From IMG/VR virus record IMGVR_UViG_3300028048_000060, positions 1 to 64,000 of that record: a stretch of DNA of 64,000 nt; one strand, written 5' to 3'. The notes beneath the pieces are model-generated. The model made no database searches. It was not told the origin of the DNA and worked only from the letters and a program-made list of their open reading frames with translations. Positions 4,918 through 58,464 of the stretch are shown here, piece after piece. This DNA comes from a virus (taxonomy: Duplodnaviria; Caudoviricetes). The translations under genes were made by a program, and so were the position numbers. Positions within the stretch are counted from its first letter, which is position 1, and the number at the start of each line of letters is the position of its first letter.

Positions 4918-6000
4918 TTAATCCTCAGGAGTGTGTGATTTAGCATTTTCAGGAAGAGTTTCTTCGCTTTCTTCACTTTCATCACTTCTAAGACCGAAAA
5001 ATTCCAAAGTACTATTCCATGCATCTTCTGCGGTATTCTTCATAAACTTTCCGACTTCAGTAATAATATCAGACCATTCTTCTGTGTCTCCATAAGACCT
5101 GGAAGTTTGAAGTTCACACTCAGAAAATGACAGACCCAGTGTTATTTGCTTTACCATTCCATCTTTAAACATAGCTACTTTCTCAGAATCACCATACTTA
5201 ACACTAACCTTAGTACAAACACACTTATGAAATGATAACAAGTCATTAACAGTTTTGTTACAGACAAACACTTCCCATGTCATTGGTGCTAGCATCACCA
5301 TTCTTGAAGAGATACTGTTGGCCTCAGTGTTTTCTGTCCACTTAGGAACACTTGGAGAACTACATCTCTTGAAGAACTTAATGATGTTGATAACCTGGTC
5401 TCTTTCACTCTCACTCTCAGGAATAAATGTAAAATCAAAACTAAATGACCTAAGGCCCGAACCTGAGTAGTTCTGGAATTGCCCAGGGTTTAGCATAGGT
5501 TTTCTTACACCAAAGGCATCTGAGAGTGCACCTAATTTCTCAGATGAATCTCCTATGAAACTCAGTGTACTCGACACTCCTCCGAAGAATCTTCCTACTT
5601 TTCCTTTTAAACCCTTAACAAGATCTCCTCCCTTCGACCAACCCGCCATGTTATTTGATGCTCCAGTTATAGCTGACAAATAGGAACTCTCAGTCCATGT
5701 ATGACTTTGGTCGTCACTAATTGCGGCAGTTAAAGGCAAAACTGCCATTCCTATAACTTCATCTAAAGATGGCTTACTTTCTCCTTTTTTGAAGTTTTCT
5801 AGATTAGCAAGTTTTTCGTCTCCTAGACTTTTTCCTTTCATAGCCATAAAGATGACAGTCTTGTTGACCATTTCATCTGTCATTATGTTATTAGGATAGT
5901 AGTAAGTTTCTAAACCTTTTCCATTAGAAGGTTTGTACTCTTTTATCTGTGTTATAAAAGTCTTTTCTTTCTTAGGTTTAATTTTTGTATCTTCAGCCAT
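4918..6000 (-). CDS. gp48: baseplate tail-tube cap (gp48-like)
   Basis: NP..FQNYSGSGLRSFSFDFTFIPESESE...I..IIKFFK; C.CTKVSVKY; ITLGLSFSE. Confidence 0.8.
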   Translation of the reverse strand: MAEDTKIKPKKEKTFITQIKEYKPSNGKGLETYYYPNNIMTDEMVNKTVIFMAMKGKSLGDEKLANLENFKKGESKPSLDEVIGMAVLPLTAAISDDQSHTWTESSYLSAITGASNNMAGWSKGGDLVKGLKGKVGRFFGGVSSTLSFIGDSSEKLGALSDAFGVRKPMLNPGQFQNYSGSGLRSFSFDFTFIPESESERDQVINIIKFFKRCSSPSVPKWTENTEANSISSRMVMLAPMTWEVFVCNKTVNDLLSFHKCVCTKVSVKYGDSEKVAMFKDGMVKQITLGLSFSECELQTSRSYGDTEEWSDIITEVGKFMKNTAEDAWNSTLEFFGLRSDESEESEETLPENAKSHTPED

Positions 6001-7585: not shown

Positions 7586-8200
7586 ATGAACATTTGGTAC
7601 GAAAAGTACAGTCCTAAGACTGTTGAAGATGTTATTCTTCCAAAGAATATCAAGGAAAGAATTTTAAAGTGTATAGAGGAACAAAAGATTCCTAATTTTG
7701 GGTTTTGGTCACATCAACCAGGACTAGGAAAGTCATGTACATCTAAGGCTATTATTAGAAGTTCAGGAGCAGACGCATTGTTCCTTAATGCTTCCTTAGA
7801 AAAGGGCATAGACACAATTAGAAACAAAGTAATGCAGTTTGCTAGTTCTGTGAGTTTAAGTGATGCTCCAAAGATAGTGGTATTCGATGAGTGTCTTGAA
7901 GAGAATGAAGAGGTTATTCTTATAAAAGATGGAAAAGAGGTTACTGTTAAACTCAAAGACCTCGATAAAAACACAGTTTATGAGTGCTTATCATATAATC
8001 TTGAAACTAGCGAATTTGAACATGATACTTGTACTGTTATCAGTGACAAGGAAGACGATATCTACGAGGTGGAACTTGAAGATGGACGAACAATTCTTGT
8101 AACTGATAATCACCCATTTATTGTAAGTGTAAATGGAAAAAATGAGGAGAAATCAATTAAAGATGGACTATCAGAAGAAGATTTTGTCGTATGTAGATAA
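7586..8200 (+). CDS. gp44: clamp loader subunit (gp44-like), N-extein fused to split-intein N-fragment
   Basis: WYEKYSPK, Walker A PGLGKS, NAS..GIDTIR, Walker B IVVFDE, then intein block A (CLEENEEV) and block B (VTDNHPF); stop at 8198-8200. Confidence 0.92.
   Translation: MNIWYEKYSPKTVEDVILPKNIKERILKCIEEQKIPNFGFWSHQPGLGKSCTSKAIIRSSGADALFLNASLEKGIDTIRNKVMQFASSVSLSDAPKIVVFDECLEENEEVILIKDGKEVTVKLKDLDKNTVYECLSYNLETSEFEHDTCTVISDKEDDIYEVELEDGRTILVTDNHPFIVSVNGKNEEKSIKDGLSEEDFVVCR
7892..8197 (+). mobile_element. split intein N-fragment (102 aa)
   Basis: Starts with Cys right after VFDE; TxxH motif; strongly acidic (28 D/E vs 11 K/R). Confidence 0.9.
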
Positions 8201-52293: not shown

Positions 52294-52405
52294 AGTCCTA
52301 ATATAGGCCTAAAAATTATACAAGCAACAAATAATTTTTATATTCATAAGAGAAGACTTTGTCTTCTCTTCCAAAAATTTTTTGACTTTAACTCAAAAAA
52401 AATCC

Positions 52406-52434
52406 TTGATTTTTCTTTTAAAGTCCTTTATAAT
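52406..52434 (+). promoter_or_regulatory. early promoter of the rtcB-NAD cluster
   Basis: TTGATT-17-TATAAT-AATAAACATAAAG; palindrome-like site 52381-52397. Confidence 0.8.
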
Positions 52435-52461
52435 AATAAACATAAAGAAAGGAGCAAAGAT

Positions 52462-53556
52462 ATGATTTTAAAAGGAAAGTTCAATCAAGCATTTATTCAT
52501 GCTGAAACTATAGAACCTCAGGTTATCAACCAAATCAAGGAATTCTTAAACACTGATTTATCAGAAGGTTCTACTATCCACATTATGCCTGACACACACT
52601 CAGGGAAGGGTTGTGTAGTAGGTTTCACAATGACTATCTTAGATAAGTTATGCCCTAACTTAGTGGGTGTTGACGTGGGTTGTAACATGACTTGTATCAA
52701 GCTTCCAAAGGACACTAAGGTTCTTCCTGAAGTCTTCTTAGAAGCATGTAAGAAGATTCCAAATGGCGTTGGTTCAAATGCTGGAAGACCTCCTAAGTTT
52801 GTAGATGTAGATTCTATAGGTTTAGATAAACTGACTTTTGAACTTAATCATACTGAAACTGTGATTAACTCAATAGGTTCACTGGGTTCAGGAAACCATT
52901 TCATTGAACTTAATGAAGATAAGGAAACTGGAGACCATTATATTGTTGTTCATACAGGTTCTCGTAACTTAGGACAACAGGTTTGTGGTTATCATATGCG
53001 AGTAGCAAAGACTGACCACTCACGTGGAGACCTGTCTTATCTTACAGGACTCAACTTAGATAACTACTTACATGATATGAAGATATGTCAAAACTATGCG
53101 TTGTCTAACCACAAGGAGATTTACTCTAAGTTATTAGAACTTTTAGGTGTGAGACTCTGTAAGACAGAAGTTTTTACTACTATGCACAACTACATAGACT
53201 TCAATGACCATATTCTTCGTAAAGGTGCTATCTCTTGTCAAGAAGGGAAGAAAGTTTTAATTCCTTTTAACATGCGAGATGGTTCTGTGATTGGTGTAGG
53301 TAAGGGAAATCCTGAATGGAACTTCTCAGGTCCTCACGGTGCAGGTCGTATTCTGTCAAGAACTCAAGCAAAGCAGTTAATCACCTTAGAAGACTTTAAG
53401 GAGTCAATGAAGGGAATAACAGGAACTATTTGTCAAGAAACTATTGATGAAGCACCAATGGTTTATAAGAAAGCAGAAGAAATTGAACGCTTAATCTCAG
53501 AAACTGTAGAAGTGACTAATCACTTAAAGGTATTAGCTAACTTTAAGGGATTTTAG
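52462..53556 (+). CDS. rtcB: RtcB RNA 2',3'-cyclic-phosphate/5'-OH ligase
   Basis: MPDTHSG, GVDVGC, GSGNHFIE, HTGSR, HNY, RKGA, HGAGR, DEAPMVYK. Confidence 0.95.
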   Translation: MILKGKFNQAFIHAETIEPQVINQIKEFLNTDLSEGSTIHIMPDTHSGKGCVVGFTMTILDKLCPNLVGVDVGCNMTCIKLPKDTKVLPEVFLEACKKIPNGVGSNAGRPPKFVDVDSIGLDKLTFELNHTETVINSIGSLGSGNHFIELNEDKETGDHYIVVHTGSRNLGQQVCGYHMRVAKTDHSRGDLSYLTGLNLDNYLHDMKICQNYALSNHKEIYSKLLELLGVRLCKTEVFTTMHNYIDFNDHILRKGAISCQEGKKVLIPFNMRDGSVIGVGKGNPEWNFSGPHGAGRILSRTQAKQLITLEDFKESMKGITGTICQETIDEAPMVYKKAEEIERLISETVEVTNHLKVLANFKGF

Positions 53557-53571
53557 GAGAAGACAGGCGGT

Positions 53572-54093
53572 ATGATATTAGATAAGAGAATTTTGAAAGG
53601 AAAGACTTACTTAGACTGTTTTGACACAGAAGAAGCAAAACAGTTCATTGGGAAGAAGTGTTATTTCACTAGAGACTTATCAAGGTTTGAAAATCTGGAT
53701 GGTCCAGGAGTGTATAAAGTCACTTTAACTGATATTTCGGACCACTATGAAGTGTGTTATGGTTCTGATGAACTCGGGATTCAGCAGTGGGACTATGCAC
53801 GCTTTATTATCCCTTGTGAATGGGTAAAGGGGGCGATTGAAAAGAAGTACAGACCTTACAAAGATGTAGAAGAATTCTTTGATGATGTAGGATGTACTCT
53901 AGGCGATGTTATTCGTTTTAGGAAAAGGGATACTACCGAAGAGGAATACCACACTTTATTGACCGGCTTCAAAGGAAATGCAAGAGTCAATATAGGTCTA
54001 GGTGATGGAGGTTATTATAGTTTAAATGACTTATTCAGCTTATTTGAGTTATATACAGCAGATGGTTGGAAACCTTTTGGAATTGAGGAGTAA
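53572..54093 (+). CDS. hypothetical protein
   Basis: IGKKCYF; KYRPY; C-terminal GWKPFG.E. Confidence 0.65.
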   Translation: MILDKRILKGKTYLDCFDTEEAKQFIGKKCYFTRDLSRFENLDGPGVYKVTLTDISDHYEVCYGSDELGIQQWDYARFIIPCEWVKGAIEKKYRPYKDVEEFFDDVGCTLGDVIRFRKRDTTEEEYHTLLTGFKGNARVNIGLGDGGYYSLNDLFSLFELYTADGWKPFGIEE

Positions 54094-54109
54094 AGGGTGA
54101 AATACGAAG

Positions 54110-54355
54110 ATGCTAGAACAGGATATTAAATATTGTACAGAGAGTCTCCCTGTAAGAGTAGGTGATTTACTCTATCTTTTCAGTGACGGATATGGTCACG
54201 TAAATTATAATGTAGAAATAACCGATGGAGATGCTACTGTAACGTTTGAGGATTTTCCTGAGTTATCTGAGGAAATATCTAATTATGATAACTGTATTGT
54301 TACACATGCTTATTTTGAAGATTGTTGGCTATGTATACATGTTAAGGAACTGTAA
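54110..54355 (+). CDS. hypothetical acidic protein
   Basis: Operonic spacing; V.DLL family-like. Confidence 0.55.
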   Translation: MLEQDIKYCTESLPVRVGDLLYLFSDGYGHVNYNVEITDGDATVTFEDFPELSEEISNYDNCIVTHAYFEDCWLCIHVKEL

Positions 54356-54529
54356 ATGACTATTAGTGAAATGATTGAAGAACTTGAGAAAATCAAAGAA
54401 GAGCATGGAGACTTACCTGTTAAGACTTGGGAATATGACTCGTTGTATGAGGAATATTATTTAGATGAAGCGAATTATCCTGAATATTATAGCTCCAGTG
54501 ATGAAGAATGTGTTGTAATAGGACAATAA
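54356..54529 (+). CDS. small protein (MT..E.I..L....HGD..V family; absent from the ORF track)
   Basis: RBS AAGGA; MTISEMIEELEKIKEEHGDLPV...VIGQ*; abuts both neighbours; resembles the 59598 ORF. Confidence 0.7.
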   Translation: MTISEMIEELEKIKEEHGDLPVKTWEYDSLYEEYYLDEANYPEYYSSSDEECVVIGQ

Positions 54530-55123
54530 ATGAAACTCAATTATATTAAAGAACTTTTTAAAGGCAAATTTTTAGGTCTTTATATAGCAAACTATACTTC
54601 AAATGAAGGAAGAAACAAGGATTATGAGATTATTTCTAGACCCTTAGAGTCTAAAGATGACTTAATGGAAAATGCAAATCCTGACGCAGTAACTATTATA
54701 TGCTATAACAAAGACAGAACTAAGATGCTCATTCAGAAGGAATTTAGAATGACTATCAACGACTTTGTTTGGGACTTTCCTTCAGGTCTTATTGACGAAG
54801 GCGAAACTCCTGATGAAACAGCCATCAGGGAACTCAAGGAAGAGACAGGTCTTGACCTAGTCAAATTTGAAGCTATCTTACCTCCTTGCTATACAAGTGT
54901 AGGGATGTCAAATGAAACAGTAGTCCCAGTTTACTGTATAGCAGAGGGGCAGATTACAGGTTCAGATAGTGACCTGGAAGAAACAGAACCTGTTTGGATT
55001 TCTAAGGAAGAAGCAAGAGCACTTCTTGAAAAGAGTGTTCTTTCAGCTAAGAAGGGAAGACCTTTTATCAGATTTTCAAACAGGGTTTCATCTGAAATTT
55101 ATAGATGGGTATTTGAAGATTAG
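54530..55123 (+). CDS. Nudix hydrolase, ADP-ribose pyrophosphatase-like
   Basis: Nudix box FPSGLIDEGETPDETAIRELKEETG; YTSVGMSNE. Confidence 0.88.
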   Translation: MKLNYIKELFKGKFLGLYIANYTSNEGRNKDYEIISRPLESKDDLMENANPDAVTIICYNKDRTKMLIQKEFRMTINDFVWDFPSGLIDEGETPDETAIRELKEETGLDLVKFEAILPPCYTSVGMSNETVVPVYCIAEGQITGSDSDLEETEPVWISKEEARALLEKSVLSAKKGRPFIRFSNRVSSEIYRWVFED

Positions 55124-55133
55124 GAGAATAACA

Positions 55134-55715
55134 GTGGTTAAGAAAGATATTTTGATTGTTGTTGATATGCAGAATGATTTTATCGACGGAGCACTTGGAA
55201 CTCCTGAGGCTAAGATGATTGTTCCAAATGTCATTGAAAAGATTAAGTCTTATAATAATGTTGATAGTTTCGTATTCGCTACTAGGGATACTCATGATGA
55301 AAATTATTTAGAGACTGAAGAAGGCAAGAATCTTCCTGTTAAGCACTGTGTTCCGTCTCTTTCTGGTTGGTGTATTCATGACGATGTTTATGATGCCCTC
55401 CTGGGATTGGACGAGGAAGTTTATACTTATTATATAAACAAACCTACATTTGGTGCACTCGAGTTAAGTGCAAAACTCAGACAATTAAGTATACTCTATG
55501 ATATTGAAAACATAGAAGTTATTGGTCTTTGTACTGATATCTGTGTTATTAGTAATGCTATAATTGCTAAGTCTGCTCTTCCAAATGCCCATATCAAAGT
55601 AGATGCTTCCTGTTGTGCAGGTGTAACTCCTGAGTCTCACAATAGAGCATTAGATTCAATGCAGACCCTTCAGATAGAGATTGTAAACAGAGGAAAGGAA
55701 CCTTGGATAAAGTAG
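55134..55715 (+). CDS. pncA: nicotinamidase
   Basis: VVDMQNDF, TRDTH, HC, K, GLCTDICV; GTG start after AGGAG; clustered with pncB and nadE. Confidence 0.85.
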   Translation: MVKKDILIVVDMQNDFIDGALGTPEAKMIVPNVIEKIKSYNNVDSFVFATRDTHDENYLETEEGKNLPVKHCVPSLSGWCIHDDVYDALLGLDEEVYTYYINKPTFGALELSAKLRQLSILYDIENIEVIGLCTDICVISNAIIAKSALPNAHIKVDASCCAGVTPESHNRALDSMQTLQIEIVNRGKEPWIK

Positions 55716-56203
55716 GGATAGTATTTGGATGCTTTATTCCACTTCATAAAGGACATCTAAGTCTTGTAGATAAAGCACTTAAAAATGACAAAGTCATCAT
55801 TGGAGTTTGTGGTTATGACTTAGACAGAGGTAAGGATTTTATTCCATTTAAAGACAGAGTAGAACTTATCAAAGAAATCTTTAACGATTTAACTGTTGTC
55901 TCTGTAGATGACCACAAAATTGGACTCACAGGAAAGTTTGACTTAGAATCCTGGAAAGTATGGTGTAATGAACTGTTTAAGAATGCAGATTTAGACCCAT
56001 TAGAAAATGAAATTGCATGGTATCTAGGAGAACAGAGTTATCTTGAAATGCTCAAAACGATATATCCTAAGCATACTTTTGAGTTAGTCGAAAGAGCAGT
56101 TATTCCAGTTTCAGGAACTATGATAAGAGAAAATCCAAAGGAAAATATCAAAGAAATTCATCCAGTGTTTATAGAATATCTAAAAGAAAAGAATATTATC
56201 TAA
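55703..56203 (+). CDS. NMN/NaMN adenylyltransferase (NadR-N/NadM-like)
   Basis: FGCFIPLHKGH (HxGH) and VSGTMIRENP motifs. Confidence 0.8.
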   Translation: MDKVGIVFGCFIPLHKGHLSLVDKALKNDKVIIGVCGYDLDRGKDFIPFKDRVELIKEIFNDLTVVSVDDHKIGLTGKFDLESWKVWCNELFKNADLDPLENEIAWYLGEQSYLEMLKTIYPKHTFELVERAVIPVSGTMIRENPKENIKEIHPVFIEYLKEKNII

Positions 56204-56219
56204 GGAAAAGGAGAAGGGA

Positions 56220-57449
56220 ATGAAATTTGAACCTATTATTAAGTCACTTTTAGAAACTGACCTCTACAAGTTCTCAATGGGTCAGGCAATTTTCCATAAT
56301 GCATCTAAGTACAAGACTACTTGGTCTTTTAAGTGCAGAAACAAAGACGTAAAGTTCACCTTAGAGATGGTCCAGGAAATCAAAGAGCAGATTAAAGCAT
56401 TTTGTAATCTTAGATTTACTGAAGATGAACTGAACTATCTTAAAAGTATCTCATGGTTAGATGAATCTTATATAGACTATCTTCATAACTTTGCCCCTAA
56501 TTTTAAGCATATCTTTATTGGAATGGACTCAGAGTGTGGCCTGTCAGTTGAGACAAAAGGAACTTGGTTAGAGACATCAATGTATGAAATTCCAATCTTA
56601 GCTATTGTAAATGAAGTGTACTTCAGGTCTCAGGATAACTTTGACGAGTTACTTAAAGAGTCTAAGAGAAGAACAGACCAGAAGTTTGAGGACTTAGTAA
56701 GCAACAAGTATTATCTATCAGCATTCTCTGAATTTGGTCTTAGAAGAAGACTTTGTGCAGAAGCACAGGAGTATGTTGTTAAGAAGTTTATCTATCTTAA
56801 TAAGACTATGTCTAAGTCAACTTTTGTTGGAACTTCAAATGTATACTTAGCTAAGAAGTACTCTGAGTTTGGTGTAAGACCAGTTGGCACAATGGCACAT
56901 GAGTGGATTATGTGTATGGGACAGGGGACATTTGGAGTAGACCCTTTAACATCAAATGACTATGCTTTAAAGGTTTGGGTTAAGGAGTATGGGAAGAAGA
57001 ATGGTATTGCTCTGACTGATACTTTAGGGACTAAGTTGTTTAATTTAGACTTTAGTGATGCTTTAGCTTCAGTGTTTGATGGAGTAAGACATGACTCAGG
57101 AGACCCTATCAAGTGGGGTGAAATGGAAATTGAACATTTTAAGAGTCTTGGAATAGACCCATTAACTAAGACTTTGCTGTTCTCAGACTCACTCGACTTT
57201 GAACGAGCAGATATGATAGCTAATCACTTTGAGAACAAAGCAAAGGTAGCATTTGGGATTGGAACATTTTTATCAAATGATACATGCATGAAACCTCTTA
57301 ATATTGTAATGAAGGTAACAGAATGTAATGGTAAGGATGTAGCTAAGATATCAGATTCTGAAGGAAAGGGAATGTGTAAGAATCCTGAGTATGTAGACTG
57401 GTTGAAGAAAGGAATTAGCCTTAGACTAATGTACTCTGAGAAGGATTAG
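56220..57449 (+). CDS. pncB: nicotinate phosphoribosyltransferase
   Basis: ETDLYKFSM, SEFGLRRR, GTSNV, GTMAHEW, GVRHDSGDP, FSDSL, FGIGT, K.SD..GK. Confidence 0.95.
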   Translation: MKFEPIIKSLLETDLYKFSMGQAIFHNASKYKTTWSFKCRNKDVKFTLEMVQEIKEQIKAFCNLRFTEDELNYLKSISWLDESYIDYLHNFAPNFKHIFIGMDSECGLSVETKGTWLETSMYEIPILAIVNEVYFRSQDNFDELLKESKRRTDQKFEDLVSNKYYLSAFSEFGLRRRLCAEAQEYVVKKFIYLNKTMSKSTFVGTSNVYLAKKYSEFGVRPVGTMAHEWIMCMGQGTFGVDPLTSNDYALKVWVKEYGKKNGIALTDTLGTKLFNLDFSDALASVFDGVRHDSGDPIKWGEMEIEHFKSLGIDPLTKTLLFSDSLDFERADMIANHFENKAKVAFGIGTFLSNDTCMKPLNIVMKVTECNGKDVAKISDSEGKGMCKNPEYVDWLKKGISLRLMYSEKD

Positions 57450-57542
57450 AACATCTTTAAATGTTTTAAAATATCTTAAATCTTATATATAAACATCATT
57501 TTAATCCAGTCATTTTTAGACTGGATTTTTTAAGGAGTAACT

Positions 57543-58313
57543 ATGAATACATTTAATCCAAAAGAAGAAAAAGAACGAATCATTAACTTTATCAGAGACT
57601 GGTTCAGTGAAAATGGTCCTAAGGCAAGTGCTGTTATAGGAATCTCAGGAGGAAAGGACTCTACCATAGCAAGTACCCTGTGTGTAGAAGCATTGGGAAA
57701 AGACAGGGTGATTGGAGTCTTAATGCCTAATGGAGTTCAGAAAGACATTGAAGATGCTCTGAGAGTAGTAAAGCATCTTGGTATTAGATATAAAGTAGTT
57801 AATATCAATAATCCTTATAATGAGATGTTAAATGCTCTGACTGCCAACAGTTCTTTTGACTTTGAAATCACAGATGCTTTAAAACAGAATCTTGCTCCAA
57901 GACTCAGAATGGCTACACTGTATGCTGTGGCGCAGGGAGTTCCAGAAGGTGGAAGAGTAATCAATACTTGCAATGCTTCTGAAGACTATGTGGGATACAG
58001 TACTAAGTTTGGTGACAGTGCTGGAGACATTGGTCCTTTAGCTTCATATACTGTTGGCGAAGTAATTCAGATTGGAGACTTACTGGATATCCCTAAGGAC
58101 TTGGTCCATAAGACTCCATCAGATGGATTATGCGGTAAAACAGACGAAGATAACTTGGGATTTACATACAGTGTCTTAGACAAGTACATTATGACTGGAG
58201 TATGCGAAGACCCTAAGGTAAAGGAAAACATAGACAGAAGACACAGACTGAATCTGCATAAGGTTTGTCCGCTTCCAGTTATTGAAAGAATATTTGAAAG
58301 AACACTAATTTAA
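57543..58313 (+). CDS. nadE: NH3-dependent NAD+ synthetase
   Basis: GISGGKDS, N..PRLRM..LY, E.YVGYSTKFGD, PSDGL..TDED.LG; no glutaminase domain. Confidence 0.95.
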   Translation: MNTFNPKEEKERIINFIRDWFSENGPKASAVIGISGGKDSTIASTLCVEALGKDRVIGVLMPNGVQKDIEDALRVVKHLGIRYKVVNINNPYNEMLNALTANSSFDFEITDALKQNLAPRLRMATLYAVAQGVPEGGRVINTCNASEDYVGYSTKFGDSAGDIGPLASYTVGEVIQIGDLLDIPKDLVHKTPSDGLCGKTDEDNLGFTYSVLDKYIMTGVCEDPKVKENIDRRHRLNLHKVCPLPVIERIFERTLI

Positions 58314-58456
58314 ATTATATTATATAAGAGACAATGATTTTTTTATGTCTCTTTTTCATCTAAGGGGTCATTTTGGCCCCTTTCTTAATTTCCAAAATCC
58401 AAGCAAGCACTTAAAAGAGTCTCATCTTCGAATTATATTAAACTATCAAAAGGAAA

Positions 58457-58464
58457 TATAAATA
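58457..58464 (+). promoter_or_regulatory. late promoter
   Basis: TATAAATA. Confidence 0.75.

Follow-up and report, generated by a model that had tools for sequence, protein, structure and literature searches.

A phage gene cluster predicted to rebuild NAD+ from nicotinamide via nicotinate

Why would a phage carry a set of genes for making NAD+, and which route would their products take? The question is raised by positions 54530-58313 of the window, by which we mean the whole 64,000-nucleotide stretch analysed (positions 1 to 64,000 of the IMG/VR virus record IMGVR_UViG_3300028048_000060, from a large uncultured phage). The + strand of this interval holds five intact, adjoining, co-oriented genes in the order Nudix hydrolase, PncA, adenylyltransferase, PncB, and NadE, and the five neighbouring same-strand NAD genes of a preliminary description were borne out by Pfam and NCBIfam profile matches. 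Catalytic residues were invariant in all five proteins (17-75 distinct phage homologues per family). A survey of gene co-occurrence, as had been suggested earlier, showed that the same NAD set recurs on many viral contigs. With five enzymes of a single pathway packed into 3.8 kb, the grouping is not due to chance. The cluster is probably a phage-encoded salvage operon leading from nicotinamide to NAD+ via nicotinate, and this degree of confidence is meant jointly for the origin, chemistry, timing, and purpose set out below.

The first step would be the deamidation of nicotinamide to nicotinate by PncA (55134..55715, + strand, 193 aa, GTG start), which matched the isochorismatase family PF00857 (1e-20) and had the P. 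horikoshii pyrazinamidase/nicotinamidase 1ILW (5.7e-16) as its best PDB match. Residues D11, K103, and C137 and the metal site D52/H54/H71 were invariant in 60 phage homologues. The family named earlier was thus retained, but the listed start, GTG 54969, was not. The ORF read from 54969 overlaps the Nudix gene by 155 nt and its homology begins at residue 59, and an in-frame GTG at 55134 sits 7 nt 3' of an AGGAG (55122-55126), so the start was moved to 55134 on the basis of homology start, AGGAG spacing, and reading frame. PncB (56220..57449, + strand, 409 aa) would then convert nicotinate and host PRPP, with ATP, to NaMN. This nicotinate phosphoribosyltransferase scored 453 bits against PRK05321 (cut-off 379) and 392 bits against TIGR01514 (cut-off 269.55), matched the Pfam families NAPRTase (5e-61) and NAPRTase_N (4e-32) as well as P. 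aeruginosa PncB 1YIR (6.9e-83), and had a His227 (in GTMAHEW) invariant across 75 homologues. At the end of the route, NadE (57543..58313, + strand, 256 aa) would make NAD+ from NaAD, NH3, and ATP; it matched TIGR00552 (169 bits, cut-off 63.65) and NAD_synthase PF02540 (6e-53), its SGGKDS P-loop was invariant across 70 homologues, and no glutaminase domain was found in it, as in the NH3-dependent type.

The proposed recycling of nicotinamide therefore kept a complete-looking route via nicotinate, but its NaMN-to-NaAD step became uncertain because the enzyme is NadR-type. This adenylyltransferase (55703..56203, + strand, 166 aa, TTG start, 13 nt overlap with the end of PncA) is a stand-alone NMN adenylyltransferase that matched TIGR01526 (1.6e-21), CTP_transf_like PF01467 (3e-9), phrog_3462 NMNAT (3.9e-24), and L. 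lactis NadR 6GYE (3.6e-22), with no RNK domain. The HxGH motif reported earlier (H15, G17, H18) was present and, like S137/G138/R142, invariant in 27 family members, with T139 nearly so. An identity as NadD was rejected: NadD models matched at just 1e-4 to 1e-6, and there was no NadD structure among the PDB matches. The relative with a solved structure that stands closest is L. lactis NadR, which turns NMN into NAD and whose kinetics were assayed with NMN and not NaMN; the NadR enzymes of E. coli and H. influenzae strongly prefer NMN. With a NadR-type enzyme, the middle step needs dual specificity, a host NadD, or a reversed, Francisella-type order. We favour conversion of NaMN to NaAD by the phage enzyme, which predicts NaMN acceptance or dual specificity. 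In Acinetobacter, a bifunctional NadM works alongside a conventional NAD synthetase (PMC3376133).

In the Francisella-type order (Route II), NadE would act as an NMN synthetase on NaMN, and the NadR-type enzyme would then take NMN to NAD+ without passing through NaAD. The likeness is that F. tularensis also combines an NH3-type NadE with a non-NadD NMNAT downstream of PncB, that its NMN synthetase 3FIU was the top PDB match of the window NadE (9.5e-38), and that in Francisella NadM in place of NadD accompanies the same change of NadE function (PMC3376133). However, Francisella uses NadM and the phage a NadR-type enzyme, P. horikoshii 2E18 scored nearly as well (1.3e-35), and the archaeal NadE of M. 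jannaschii is an NaAD-using NAD synthetase (PMC3376133). In the tree, the window NadE grouped within Selenomonas NadEs (SH-aLRT 95), which are of housekeeping type and come from an operon without NMNAT, so that it sits with ordinary bacterial NadEs, unlike Francisella NadE*. NadE clades mostly followed the type of partner adenylyltransferase, with 3-4 changes on the tree, and the NadEs of most NadR-type loci had a 2-residue insertion right after the residue aligned to F. tularensis Gln133; both observations favour Route II, but NadR-type partners also occurred with the other NadE clade (L035, L087, L089). A NadD::NadE fusion (P0203), whose NadE half was 63% identical to the window NadE, belonged to the clade of the latter, an argument for NaAD as the substrate of these NadEs. 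At Tyr27, Gln133, and Arg236, which we take to be the specificity determinants of F. tularensis NadE, the window NadE has Gly, Gln, and Leu. Just one of three matches, and this Gln is uninformative for specificity because every phage NadE has it, the 49 with a NadD partner among them. We consider Route II improbable for this phage.

The phage might also leave the NaMN-to-NaAD step to host NadD and use its NadR-type enzyme only to recapture NMN, which would come from NAD-dependent ligase or from nicotinamide riboside uptake in the host. Such a split would fit the activity of L. lactis NadR on NMN, the Selenomonas operon described below, which works without its own adenylyltransferase, and the occurrence of the same NMNAT family beside PnuC and a kinase (an NR-to-NMN arm) in related phages. 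But the genome encodes no NMN source, since neither PnuC, RNK, an NAD-dependent ligase, nor a second NAPRTase/Nampt-family gene was found in the 155-kb record, and the adenylyltransferase gene sits inside the operon, its ends overlapping or nearly touching the flanking pncA and pncB. NadD and a PRPS-like Adps (NARP1 type) were likewise not found in the record, and the earlier statement that the window has no prs gene was correct and extends to the whole record, which is about 68% complete, so prs, nadD, and pnuC may sit in the missing part.

Related phage loci bear on the same choice. At least 148 IMG/VR contigs had related PncB genes, and in the 80 viral loci examined, PncB/NadE occurred with NadD in 48 and with a NadR-type enzyme in 11, the two types being mutually exclusive in otherwise homologous clusters. 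In 14 of the 80 loci there was no adenylyltransferase nearby, and a NadM-type gene was present elsewhere in all five genomes sampled from these 14. This exclusivity, together with the NadM-type genes elsewhere, indicates that three families fill one slot. That a NaMN-type NadD occupies the corresponding cluster of related phages points to selection for owning the NaMN adenylation step, which speaks against the use of host NadD. In three superclusters (L086, L100, and L101), PnuC and the kinase already have a NadR-like paralogue of their own next to them, separate and deeply divergent; this suggests that the adenylyltransferase embedded between pncA and pncB serves the deamidated arm. A division of the pathway between host and phage thus seems rather unlikely, and we keep to NaMN adenylation by the phage enzyme.

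The Nudix hydrolase (54530..55123, + strand, 197 aa, PF00293 6e-18) is ADP-ribose/ADP-sugar pyrophosphatase-like and would split ADP-ribose to AMP and ribose-5-phosphate, from which host Prs would regenerate PRPP. Its Nudix box G86-x5-E92-x7-R100-E101-x2-E104-E105-x-G107 was intact and invariant in 17 homologues, and its best PDB matches (4e-11 to 4e-7) were NUDT5 and ADPR pyrophosphatases from bacteria. The Pro of the DPG segment is a hallmark of ADPR pyrophosphatases, and the alignment has Val in place of this Pro of NUDT5, so the substrate is not certain. Scores against ADPRase equivalog models were also far under the cut-offs, with 40 bits for NudE (cut-off 169) and 29 bits for the YffH/AdpP family (cut-off 79.55), and a preprint reports that enzymes of phages break down ADPR-based signals and supply NAD+ synthesis (bioRxiv 10.64898/2026.05.28.727677). 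These points would allow NADH, NAD-capped RNA, or cyclic ADPR-type immune signals as substrates, which we regard as doubtful. The top 13 PDB matches were all ADP-ribose/ADP-sugar pyrophosphatases, bar one named 'methanol dehydrogenase activator' by its depositors, and the alignment spans the N-terminal domain of the ADPR pyrophosphatase family. Moreover, a similar Nudix was found within the NAD clusters of 15 of the first 80 loci and in L087 and L089, and an annotated ADPRase lies close to pncB in Atu_ph07.

The core genes probably stem from an operon like the bacterial one, NrtR-PncA-PncB-NadE, on plasmid pSRC1 of Selenomonas ruminantium TAM6421 (NC_017078.1, 137437-140871). It shares with the phage the order Nudix-family protein, PncA, PncB, NadE, and the phage PncA, PncB, and NadE were 46%, 64%, and 69% identical to its proteins, although GC content was 52% in the pSRC1 operon and 36% in the phage. 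The first pSRC1 gene encodes a 265-aa regulator (Nudix plus NrtR winged helix), whereas the phage has the 197-aa ADPRase-like enzyme, in which a Pfam search found no NrtR winged-helix domain and in which similarity to the pSRC1 NrtR was limited to a 29-aa Nudix-box region. The pSRC1 operon also has no adenylyltransferase, while the phage has its NadR-type one between pncA and pncB. The NrtR family senses ADP-ribose, and sister phage clusters retain an NrtR-like regulator with both Nudix and winged-helix parts. The PncA-PncB-NadE core is thus probably an old copy of an NrtR-regulated salvage operon of the Selenomonas ruminantium kind, now adapted to phage base composition. In the phage version, a catalytic-looking Nudix would occupy the place of the ADP-ribose-sensing repressor, and the stand-alone NadR-type adenylyltransferase would have been inserted between pncA and pncB.

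The NAD genes appear to belong to a longer transcription unit. A terminator-like hairpin (52348..52370, + strand, 10-bp stem; -15.1 kcal/mol, z = -3.5, fold of 52335-52400) closes the upstream unit, and a sigma-70-like promoter TTGATT-17-TATAAT (52406..52434, + strand, 10/12 matches in a consensus scan) is the likely start of an RtcB-to-NadE unit. The first gene of this block encodes an RtcB RNA ligase (52462..53556, + strand; PF01139 7.5e-54; phrog_1075, annotated as tRNA splicing ligase, 3.9e-114), and three small ORFs of 173, 81, and 57 aa (53572..54529, + strand), with no Pfam or NCBIfam match, fill the interval between RtcB and Nudix. Five paralogues of the 173-aa ORF lie further along the genome, at 64-73 kb. 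Intergenic gaps in the block are 0-16 nt, or the genes overlap, and directly 5' of the NadE ribosome-binding site there is an intercistronic hairpin with a 9-bp stem and a trailing U-run (57503..57527, + strand; fold of 57450-57545, -16.5 kcal/mol, z = -2.95), which may be a leaky terminator or an RNA-stability element. The unit closes with a tandem pair of terminator-like hairpins (58326-58353 and 58362-58382, + strand; fold of 58314-58400, -22.4 kcal/mol, z = -4.4), and the second was called by the terminator scan as well. The T4-type late motif TATAAATA was found ahead of structural genes in the same genome, and a separate TATAAATA at 58457 precedes the next downstream gene, DUF285 (58506), but there was none between the sigma-70-like promoter and 58400. 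The sigma-70-like promoter and the absence of the late motif suggest that the NAD operon is probably expressed early or in mid-infection, the promoter and terminator calls being purely consensus matches.

Most likely, the operon would keep NAD+ available in infection, also when SIR2/TIR-type defences cleave NAD+. A counter-defence role is plausible, and the deamidated intermediates may resist NADases; if so, the phage could withstand NAD-destroying bacterial immunity. A general auxiliary metabolic module, giving a larger NAD+ pool in niacin-rich, NAD-limited gut/rumen hosts and having no specific counter-defence role, is a serious alternative, though not the one we favour. The core probably derives from an ordinary housekeeping salvage operon of bacteria, the phage operon has no linked gene of known anti-defence function, RtcB was not seen beside NAD genes in the 80 related loci, and Li et al. 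read such clusters mainly as support complementing host pathways (PMC11662467). However, NARP1-3, in which NAD+ rebuilding defeats NAD-depleting defences (PMC13464706), show the same logic as counter-defence, and nicotinamide and probably ADP-ribose, which the operon would consume, are exactly the two NADase products. The regulator kept in sister clusters and the promoter pattern also speak for more than metabolic support. The two roles are compatible and not mutually exclusive.

Judged from its genes, the route is distinct from NARP1-3, since there is no Adps, no Nampt-family second gene, and no PnuC or RNK. It cannot be called a third type of phage NAD reconstitution, as had been proposed, because NARP3 already names a PnuC-like transporter with a NadR-like RNK/NMNAT (Bas30_87/86; Sci Adv 2026, PMC13464706). 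NARP3 likewise uses a NadR-family NMNAT domain for adenylyl transfer, but the window is without PnuC and RNK, and its NMNAT is the 166-aa stand-alone domain; in the related L100 and L101 phages, this cluster type occurs together with a NARP3-like arm in split form. Nicotinamide and PRPP are likewise the starting compounds of NARP2 (Nampt plus Nmnat) and of NadV/NatV from Vibrio phage KVP40, an NMNAT-family enzyme again stands at the end, and a Nudix ADPRase activity is included, which in KVP40 NatV is fused to the NMNAT. Both use Nampt, whereas the only NAPRTase-family gene of the window is a bona fide PncB, and the window route would take two extra steps (deamidation and re-amidation) at a higher ATP cost. 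NARP2 is a proven counter-defence (PMC13464706).

Nor is such a gene set new to phages, because a sequence-based study of 2024 had already described Preiss-Handler clusters of the type pncB-nadD-nadE and also mentioned phage pncA (PMC11662467). These 'NAD-jumbo phages' (for example Kuafu_71) likewise have pncB, nadE, and an adenylyltransferase in a cluster, which was proposed, by sequence analysis only, to make NAD+ independently of the host (PMC11662467). However, the Kuafu_71 adenylyltransferase is NadD, while the window has a NadR-type NMNAT together with in-operon PncA and ADPRase-like Nudix, and the hosts of the Kuafu clade are Bacteroidota (PMC11662467), while the core genes of the window resemble those of Selenomonas/Lachnospiraceae. 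In a cultured jumbo phage, Sinorhizobium phage Phosso (PV764938), some 6 kb are annotated with PncB, an NH3-dependent NadE, an NMN adenylyltransferase, a MutT-like Nudix, and a 'hydrolase' resembling PncA, with only 30-34% identity to the window proteins, another gene order, and unrelated small genes interspersed.

The five adjacent plus-strand genes of the NAD+ salvage operon (54530-58313) were found as the preliminary description had them, and all five family assignments held. The first gene matched the Nudix family (PF00293, 6e-18), PncA (55134-55715, 193 aa) matched the isochorismatase family (PF00857, 1e-20), and the adenylyltransferase (NMNAT; 55703-56203, 166 aa) matched the cytidylyltransferase-like family (PF01467, 3e-9). 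PncB, the fourth gene, carried the NAPRTase domain together with its N-terminal domain and scored 453 bits with PRK05321 against a cut-off of 379 bits, and NadE (57543-58313) was a single-domain NAD synthase (TIGR00552, 169 bits against a cut-off of 63.65 bits). The PncA frame had been listed from GTG 54969, with a 155-nt overlap with the Nudix gene; homology to nicotinamidases of solved structure began only at residue 59 of that frame, and the start was corrected to the in-frame GTG 55134, which lies 7 nt past AGGAG. The HxGH motif reported for the adenylyltransferase was present, but the enzyme was of NadR type and not NadD: its top NCBIfam model was the NadR-type NMN adenylyltransferase domain (TIGR01526, 1.6e-21), and the fit to NadD models was weaker (1e-4 to 1e-6). 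Among solved structures it came closest to L. lactis NadR (6GYE, 3.6e-22), with no NadD structure among its PDB matches, and it is a stand-alone domain of 166 aa without the ribosylnicotinamide kinase half. The sole other cytidylyltransferase-like match in the genome (124642-124938, minus strand) lies outside the window within a 650-aa open frame and probably does not represent a pyridine-nucleotide enzyme.

PncA aligned with the P. horikoshii nicotinamidase 1ILW (5.7e-16) at Asp11, Lys103 and Cys137, which we take to be the catalytic triad, and at Asp52, His54 and His71, presumably the metal site. The top PDB matches of the Nudix protein were NUDT5 and bacterial ADP-ribose pyrophosphatases (4e-11 to 4e-7), with the N-terminal domain aligned, and its Nudix box was intact and invariant across 17 homologues. 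It had Val at the position of Pro in the NUDT5 "DPG" segment, a residue which we assume to be an ADPRase hallmark, and it scored under the ADPRase equivalog cut-offs of NCBIfam. PncB matched P. aeruginosa PncB (1YIR, 6.9e-83) with the GTMAHEW segment included, and NadE carried the SGGKDS P-loop. The catalytic residues were invariant in all distinct phage homologues collected (60 PncA, 17 Nudix, 70 NadE and 75 PncB), and the HxGH motif and S137, G138 and R142 were invariant in the 27 members of the NMNAT family, with T139 nearly so. By these residues, all five enzymes look active.

The genes from RtcB (52462) to PncB were spaced by 0-16 nt or overlapped, and NadE sits 93 nt downstream of pncB, with a 9-bp hairpin and U-run between the two. 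A sigma-70-like promoter identified by consensus match (TTGATT-17-TATAAT, 52406-52434) was preceded by a stable hairpin (52348-52370), and two hairpins (58326-58353 and 58362-58382; -22.4 kcal/mol, z = -4.4) followed NadE. The T4-type late motif TATAAATA immediately precedes the head gene (42622), the terminase-like gene (27702) and, downstream of the operon, the DUF285 gene (58457), and no copy was found in 52300-58400. All three structural genes checked (27702, 38131 and 42622) had it directly upstream; the sites in the window were 11449, 25917, 27702, 31819, 38131, 42622, 58457 and 59797, and the total of 12 matches was not beyond chance, as 7 of 100 shuffles reached 12. The motif could help to map the late units of this phage. 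From these consensus matches we infer that the operon is expressed early or middle, from a host-type promoter.

The RtcB RNA ligase gene (52462-53556) heads the tightly packed block that contains the NAD genes. A conserved "repair island" of RtcB and NAD genes was considered and rejected, with RtcB found within 6 kb in 0 of 80 related loci; because of this absence the pairing appears to be specific to the lineage of the window phage. Just downstream of RtcB, a 173-aa ORF (53572-54093) without a family match had five diverged paralogues (26-38% identity) in the genome, clustered 10-20 kb beyond it at 64594-73701.

The window covers the opening 64 kb of a 154,736-bp IMG/VR virus record, whose completeness CheckV estimates at about 68%. 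The record encodes a major head protein, a terminase-like protein and baseplate proteins alongside the operon, and its GC content is uniform (30-38%). Megablast gave no match of the region to GenBank phages, and thus there is no close cultured relative. No NAD-dependent ligase was found in the 155-kb record.

We then compared the operon with the published phage systems. NARP1 and NARP2 date from 2024; in 2026 a pair of PnuC and NadR was named NARP3, in a paper whose discussion counts three pathways (PMC13464706). NARP1 consists of a PRPS-like Adps and Namat, whereas the window genome has no Adps and its sole NAPRTase-family gene is PncB, above the equivalog cut-off. The search for a PRPS-like Adps or prs gene found no Pribosyltran_N domain (PF13793) in the 155-kb record (about 68% complete), and the control was matched in 14 of 14 genomes; the statement of the preliminary description that the window lacks a prs gene thus extends to the whole record, and PRPP must therefore come from the host. 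With NARP2 (Nampt/NadV and Nmnat) the operon has the NMNAT in common but not Nampt, since the single PF04095 match in the genome is PncB. NARP3 is made up of a PnuC-like nicotinamide riboside transporter and a bifunctional RNK-NMNAT NadR, whereas the genome has no PF04973 match and its NMNAT lacks the kinase domain. As prs/Adps, PnuC and a second NAPRTase or Nampt gene are missing from the record, the operon is not NARP1, NARP2 or NARP3.

Complete salvage or Preiss-Handler pathways are encoded by 174 of 668 gut jumbo phages, with clustered pncB-nadD-nadE noted and phage pncA mentioned, and according to the authors none of these phage pathways has been validated experimentally (Li et al., Microbiome 2024, PMC11662467). 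The window shares with that Preiss-Handler cluster a phage-borne PncB (453 bits with PRK05321, on a 155-kb virus record) and a NadE clustered with pncB, but has the NadR-type enzyme in the slot of NadD. No NadD was found elsewhere in the 155-kb record, which is about 68% complete. That the middle step is performed by a host NadD, with the phage relying on its host, is unlikely in our judgment. The proposal of a "third" reconstitution system could not be upheld, since NARP3 is already the PnuC and NadR pair and Preiss-Handler clusters have been published (PMC11662467). PncA, PncB and NadE are mentioned neither in the NARP1/2 paper nor in the NARP3 paper (PMC13464706), and we found no report in the literature that tested the deamidating route as a counter-defence. 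PHROGs has families for phage NadE and for NMNAT, and also a PncA-like one that carries the label "unknown function". In GenBank, a stretch of about 6 kb in Sinorhizobium phage Phosso has annotated NadE, PncB, MutT-like Nudix, NMNAT and PncA-like hydrolase genes, Agrobacterium phage Atu_ph07 has PncB and an ADPRase, and PncB and NadE are adjacent in 735-kb "huge phages". Judged from its sequence, the operon is a real, well-preserved phage nicotinamide-to-NAD+ salvage operon, and it is a variant of the published kind of cluster and not a new category, with a NadR-type adenylyltransferase for NadD and a catalytic-looking Nudix for the NrtR regulator.

The closest named relatives of NadE were from Selenomonas ruminantium and Lachnospiraceae (65-69% identity). 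On plasmid pSRC1 of S. ruminantium TAM6421 the order is Nudix-domain protein, isochorismatase-family hydrolase, pncB and nadE, so that pncA-pncB-nadE is common to both, with PncA, PncB and NadE 46, 64 and 69% identical. The idea that the Selenomonas operon was the template held in this comparison. However, the pSRC1 operon starts with an NrtR-type regulator, in which a Nudix domain is combined with the NrtR winged helix, whereas the window Nudix has PF00293 only, without NrtR_WHD, and resembles the pSRC1 Nudix over just 29 aa around the Nudix box. The pSRC1 operon also has no adenylyltransferase, whereas the window operon has one. In the NadE tree, the window NadE fell in a clade with three Selenomonas and four phage NadEs (SH-aLRT 95). 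GC content was 36% in the window cluster, 34% in the phage and 52% in the Selenomonas operon; the cluster is near the phage and far from the Selenomonas operon, and therefore the capture is old. S. ruminantium was not accepted as the present host, as GC differs by about 18 points despite the high protein similarity, and it is probably not the host itself.

The survey of pncA-pncB-nadE co-occurrence, which had been proposed together with the pathway, placed PncB relatives on at least 148 IMG/VR contigs, and the gene sets recurred. Among the best 80 loci kept from this PncB scan (63-67% identical), 48 had PncA-(DUF5662)-PncB-NadD-NadE, 14 had PncB-NadE-Nudix, and 11 had a NadR-type enzyme, seven of them in the window order PncA-NMNAT-PncB-NadE and one also with a Nudix gene. 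The NadD-type gene of the majority is a genuine NadD relative (TIGR00482, 1.4e-29), and an NadM-type (archaeal-type) NMNAT is encoded at another place in all five genomes checked from the PncB-NadE-Nudix group. The DUF5662 protein (PF18907, 3.7e-32) lies between PncA and PncB, for example at 5430-5996 of the related locus L049 and in the equivalent spot of about 48 NadD-type loci; we know of no link of DUF5662 to NAD metabolism.

Scanning the viral contigs with a single NMNAT sequence found nothing, and scanning them with a profile of the NMNAT family alignment found 17 loci. PncA and NadE were in every one not truncated by the contig end, and PncB was in all but one, where it lies just beyond the fetched range (compare loci L005 and L102). 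Two of the related loci (L100 and L101) had a nine-gene block of NrtR-like gene, radical SAM, second NadR-like transferase, PnuC, AAA_33 kinase, PncA, NMNAT, PncB and NadE, and the 8.6-kb contig L086, binned as a Bacilli MAG, had the same type of block, ending before NadE. The extra genes (radical SAM, NadR-like, PnuC and AAA_33 kinase) lie at 2903-6019 of L086 and about 5100-7500 of L100 and L101, and the second NadR-like transferase is deeply divergent. By its gene content this supercluster resembles a NARP3-like nicotinamide riboside arm, in split form, combined with a deamidating arm. No homologues of the L086 kinase or the L086 PnuC were found in the 155-kb record. In the adenylyltransferase tree, the NadD-type, NadM-type, PnuC-adjacent and pncA/pncB-embedded enzymes formed four separate groups. 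Many sister clusters keep an NrtR-like gene (Nudix and NrtR winged helix): in L091-L094 and L098-L101 it precedes the NMNAT (at 8001) by about 1.3-3.6 kb, and in L086 it lies at 2139-2897. NrtR is de-repressed by ADP-ribose, and in a phage such a gene would let a product of NADase defences induce the salvage operon.

The order of the last two steps had been proposed as NaMN to NaAD to NAD+. The NadR type of the adenylyltransferase and the closest NadE structure, 3FIU, raise the alternative of a Francisella-type order, in which NadE makes NMN from NaMN and NMN is then converted to NAD+; 3FIU is the NMN synthetase of F. tularensis (Ft; PMC12143786), and the pathway logic comes from PMC3376133. 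The NadE tree had two supported clades that mostly tracked the type of the partner adenylyltransferase, and the clade of the window NadE contains a NadD::NadE fusion whose NadE half is 63% identical, which argues against the Francisella-type order. Three NadR-type loci fell in the other clade, and strict co-evolution of NadE with the adenylyltransferase was rejected on tree exceptions in both directions. In the fusion protein (P0203, 443 aa), encoded on a metagenomic contig of 1.5 kb, an NadD-type adenylyltransferase is joined to NadE; this would link the two steps in Rosetta-stone fashion, provided that the fusion is not an artefact of read-through on so short a contig. The Ft determinants, which we take to be Tyr27, Gln133 and Arg236 with identities cross-checked only in the 3FIU alignment, corresponded to Gly, Gln and Leu in the window NadE, and this Gln is universal in phage NadEs whichever adenylyltransferase is the partner, so these positions do not discriminate. 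Against the Francisella-type order it also counts that the nearest bacterial NadE relatives come from an operon relying on a housekeeping NadD, and that any NR/NMN arm comes with a divergent NadR-like paralogue of its own. We therefore regard the Francisella-type order as improbable; because of the specificity positions, the NadE tree, the bacterial relatives and the second paralogue taken together, we favour the classical order, with a NadR-type enzyme that would accept NaMN or have dual specificity. The kinetics of L. lactis NadR were measured with NMN only, and there is a precedent in Acinetobacter, where a bifunctional NadM works with a conventional NAD synthetase (PMC3376133).

The operon would start from nicotinamide and also, provided that the Nudix gene is correctly assigned, from ADP-ribose; these two compounds are exactly what SIR2/TIR NADases release. 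NAD+ depletion is among the commonest effector strategies of bacterial immunity, and the operon could plausibly act against immunity of this NAD-depleting kind. Three features fit selection for rapid NAD+ rebuilding by the phage's own means: the operon is predicted to be expressed early, sister phages keep an NrtR-like regulator, and an adenylyltransferase appears to have been added repeatedly and independently. The evidence does not tell counter-defence apart from a general role in supporting the NAD+ pool, and we give the latter a substantial chance, somewhat short of even. The three validated phage routes for rebuilding NAD+ avoid deamidated intermediates, and a nicotinamidase-based route would, if true, be a fourth; it would matter particularly in Firmicutes of the gut and rumen, which natively use PncA/PncB salvage. 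It is only tentatively that we propose a fourth phage system for NAD+ reconstitution, biochemically distinct and directed against SIR2/TIR-type defences, and we rather doubt it; in it the NadR-type enzyme would have NaMN or dual specificity (or NadE would be an NMN synthetase), and the step missing from the captured host operon would have been filled at least three times independently, by NadD-, NadR- and NadM-type enzymes. The value of the finding is limited because the general idea has already been published from sequence (Li et al. 2024, PMC11662467). In related phages one PncB/NadE core partners three adenylyltransferase families while the bacterial template operon has none, and some phages keep the NrtR-type regulator while the window phage carries a catalytic-looking Nudix instead; thus the adenylyltransferase step and the handling of ADP-ribose are the points where phages modified the host pathway.
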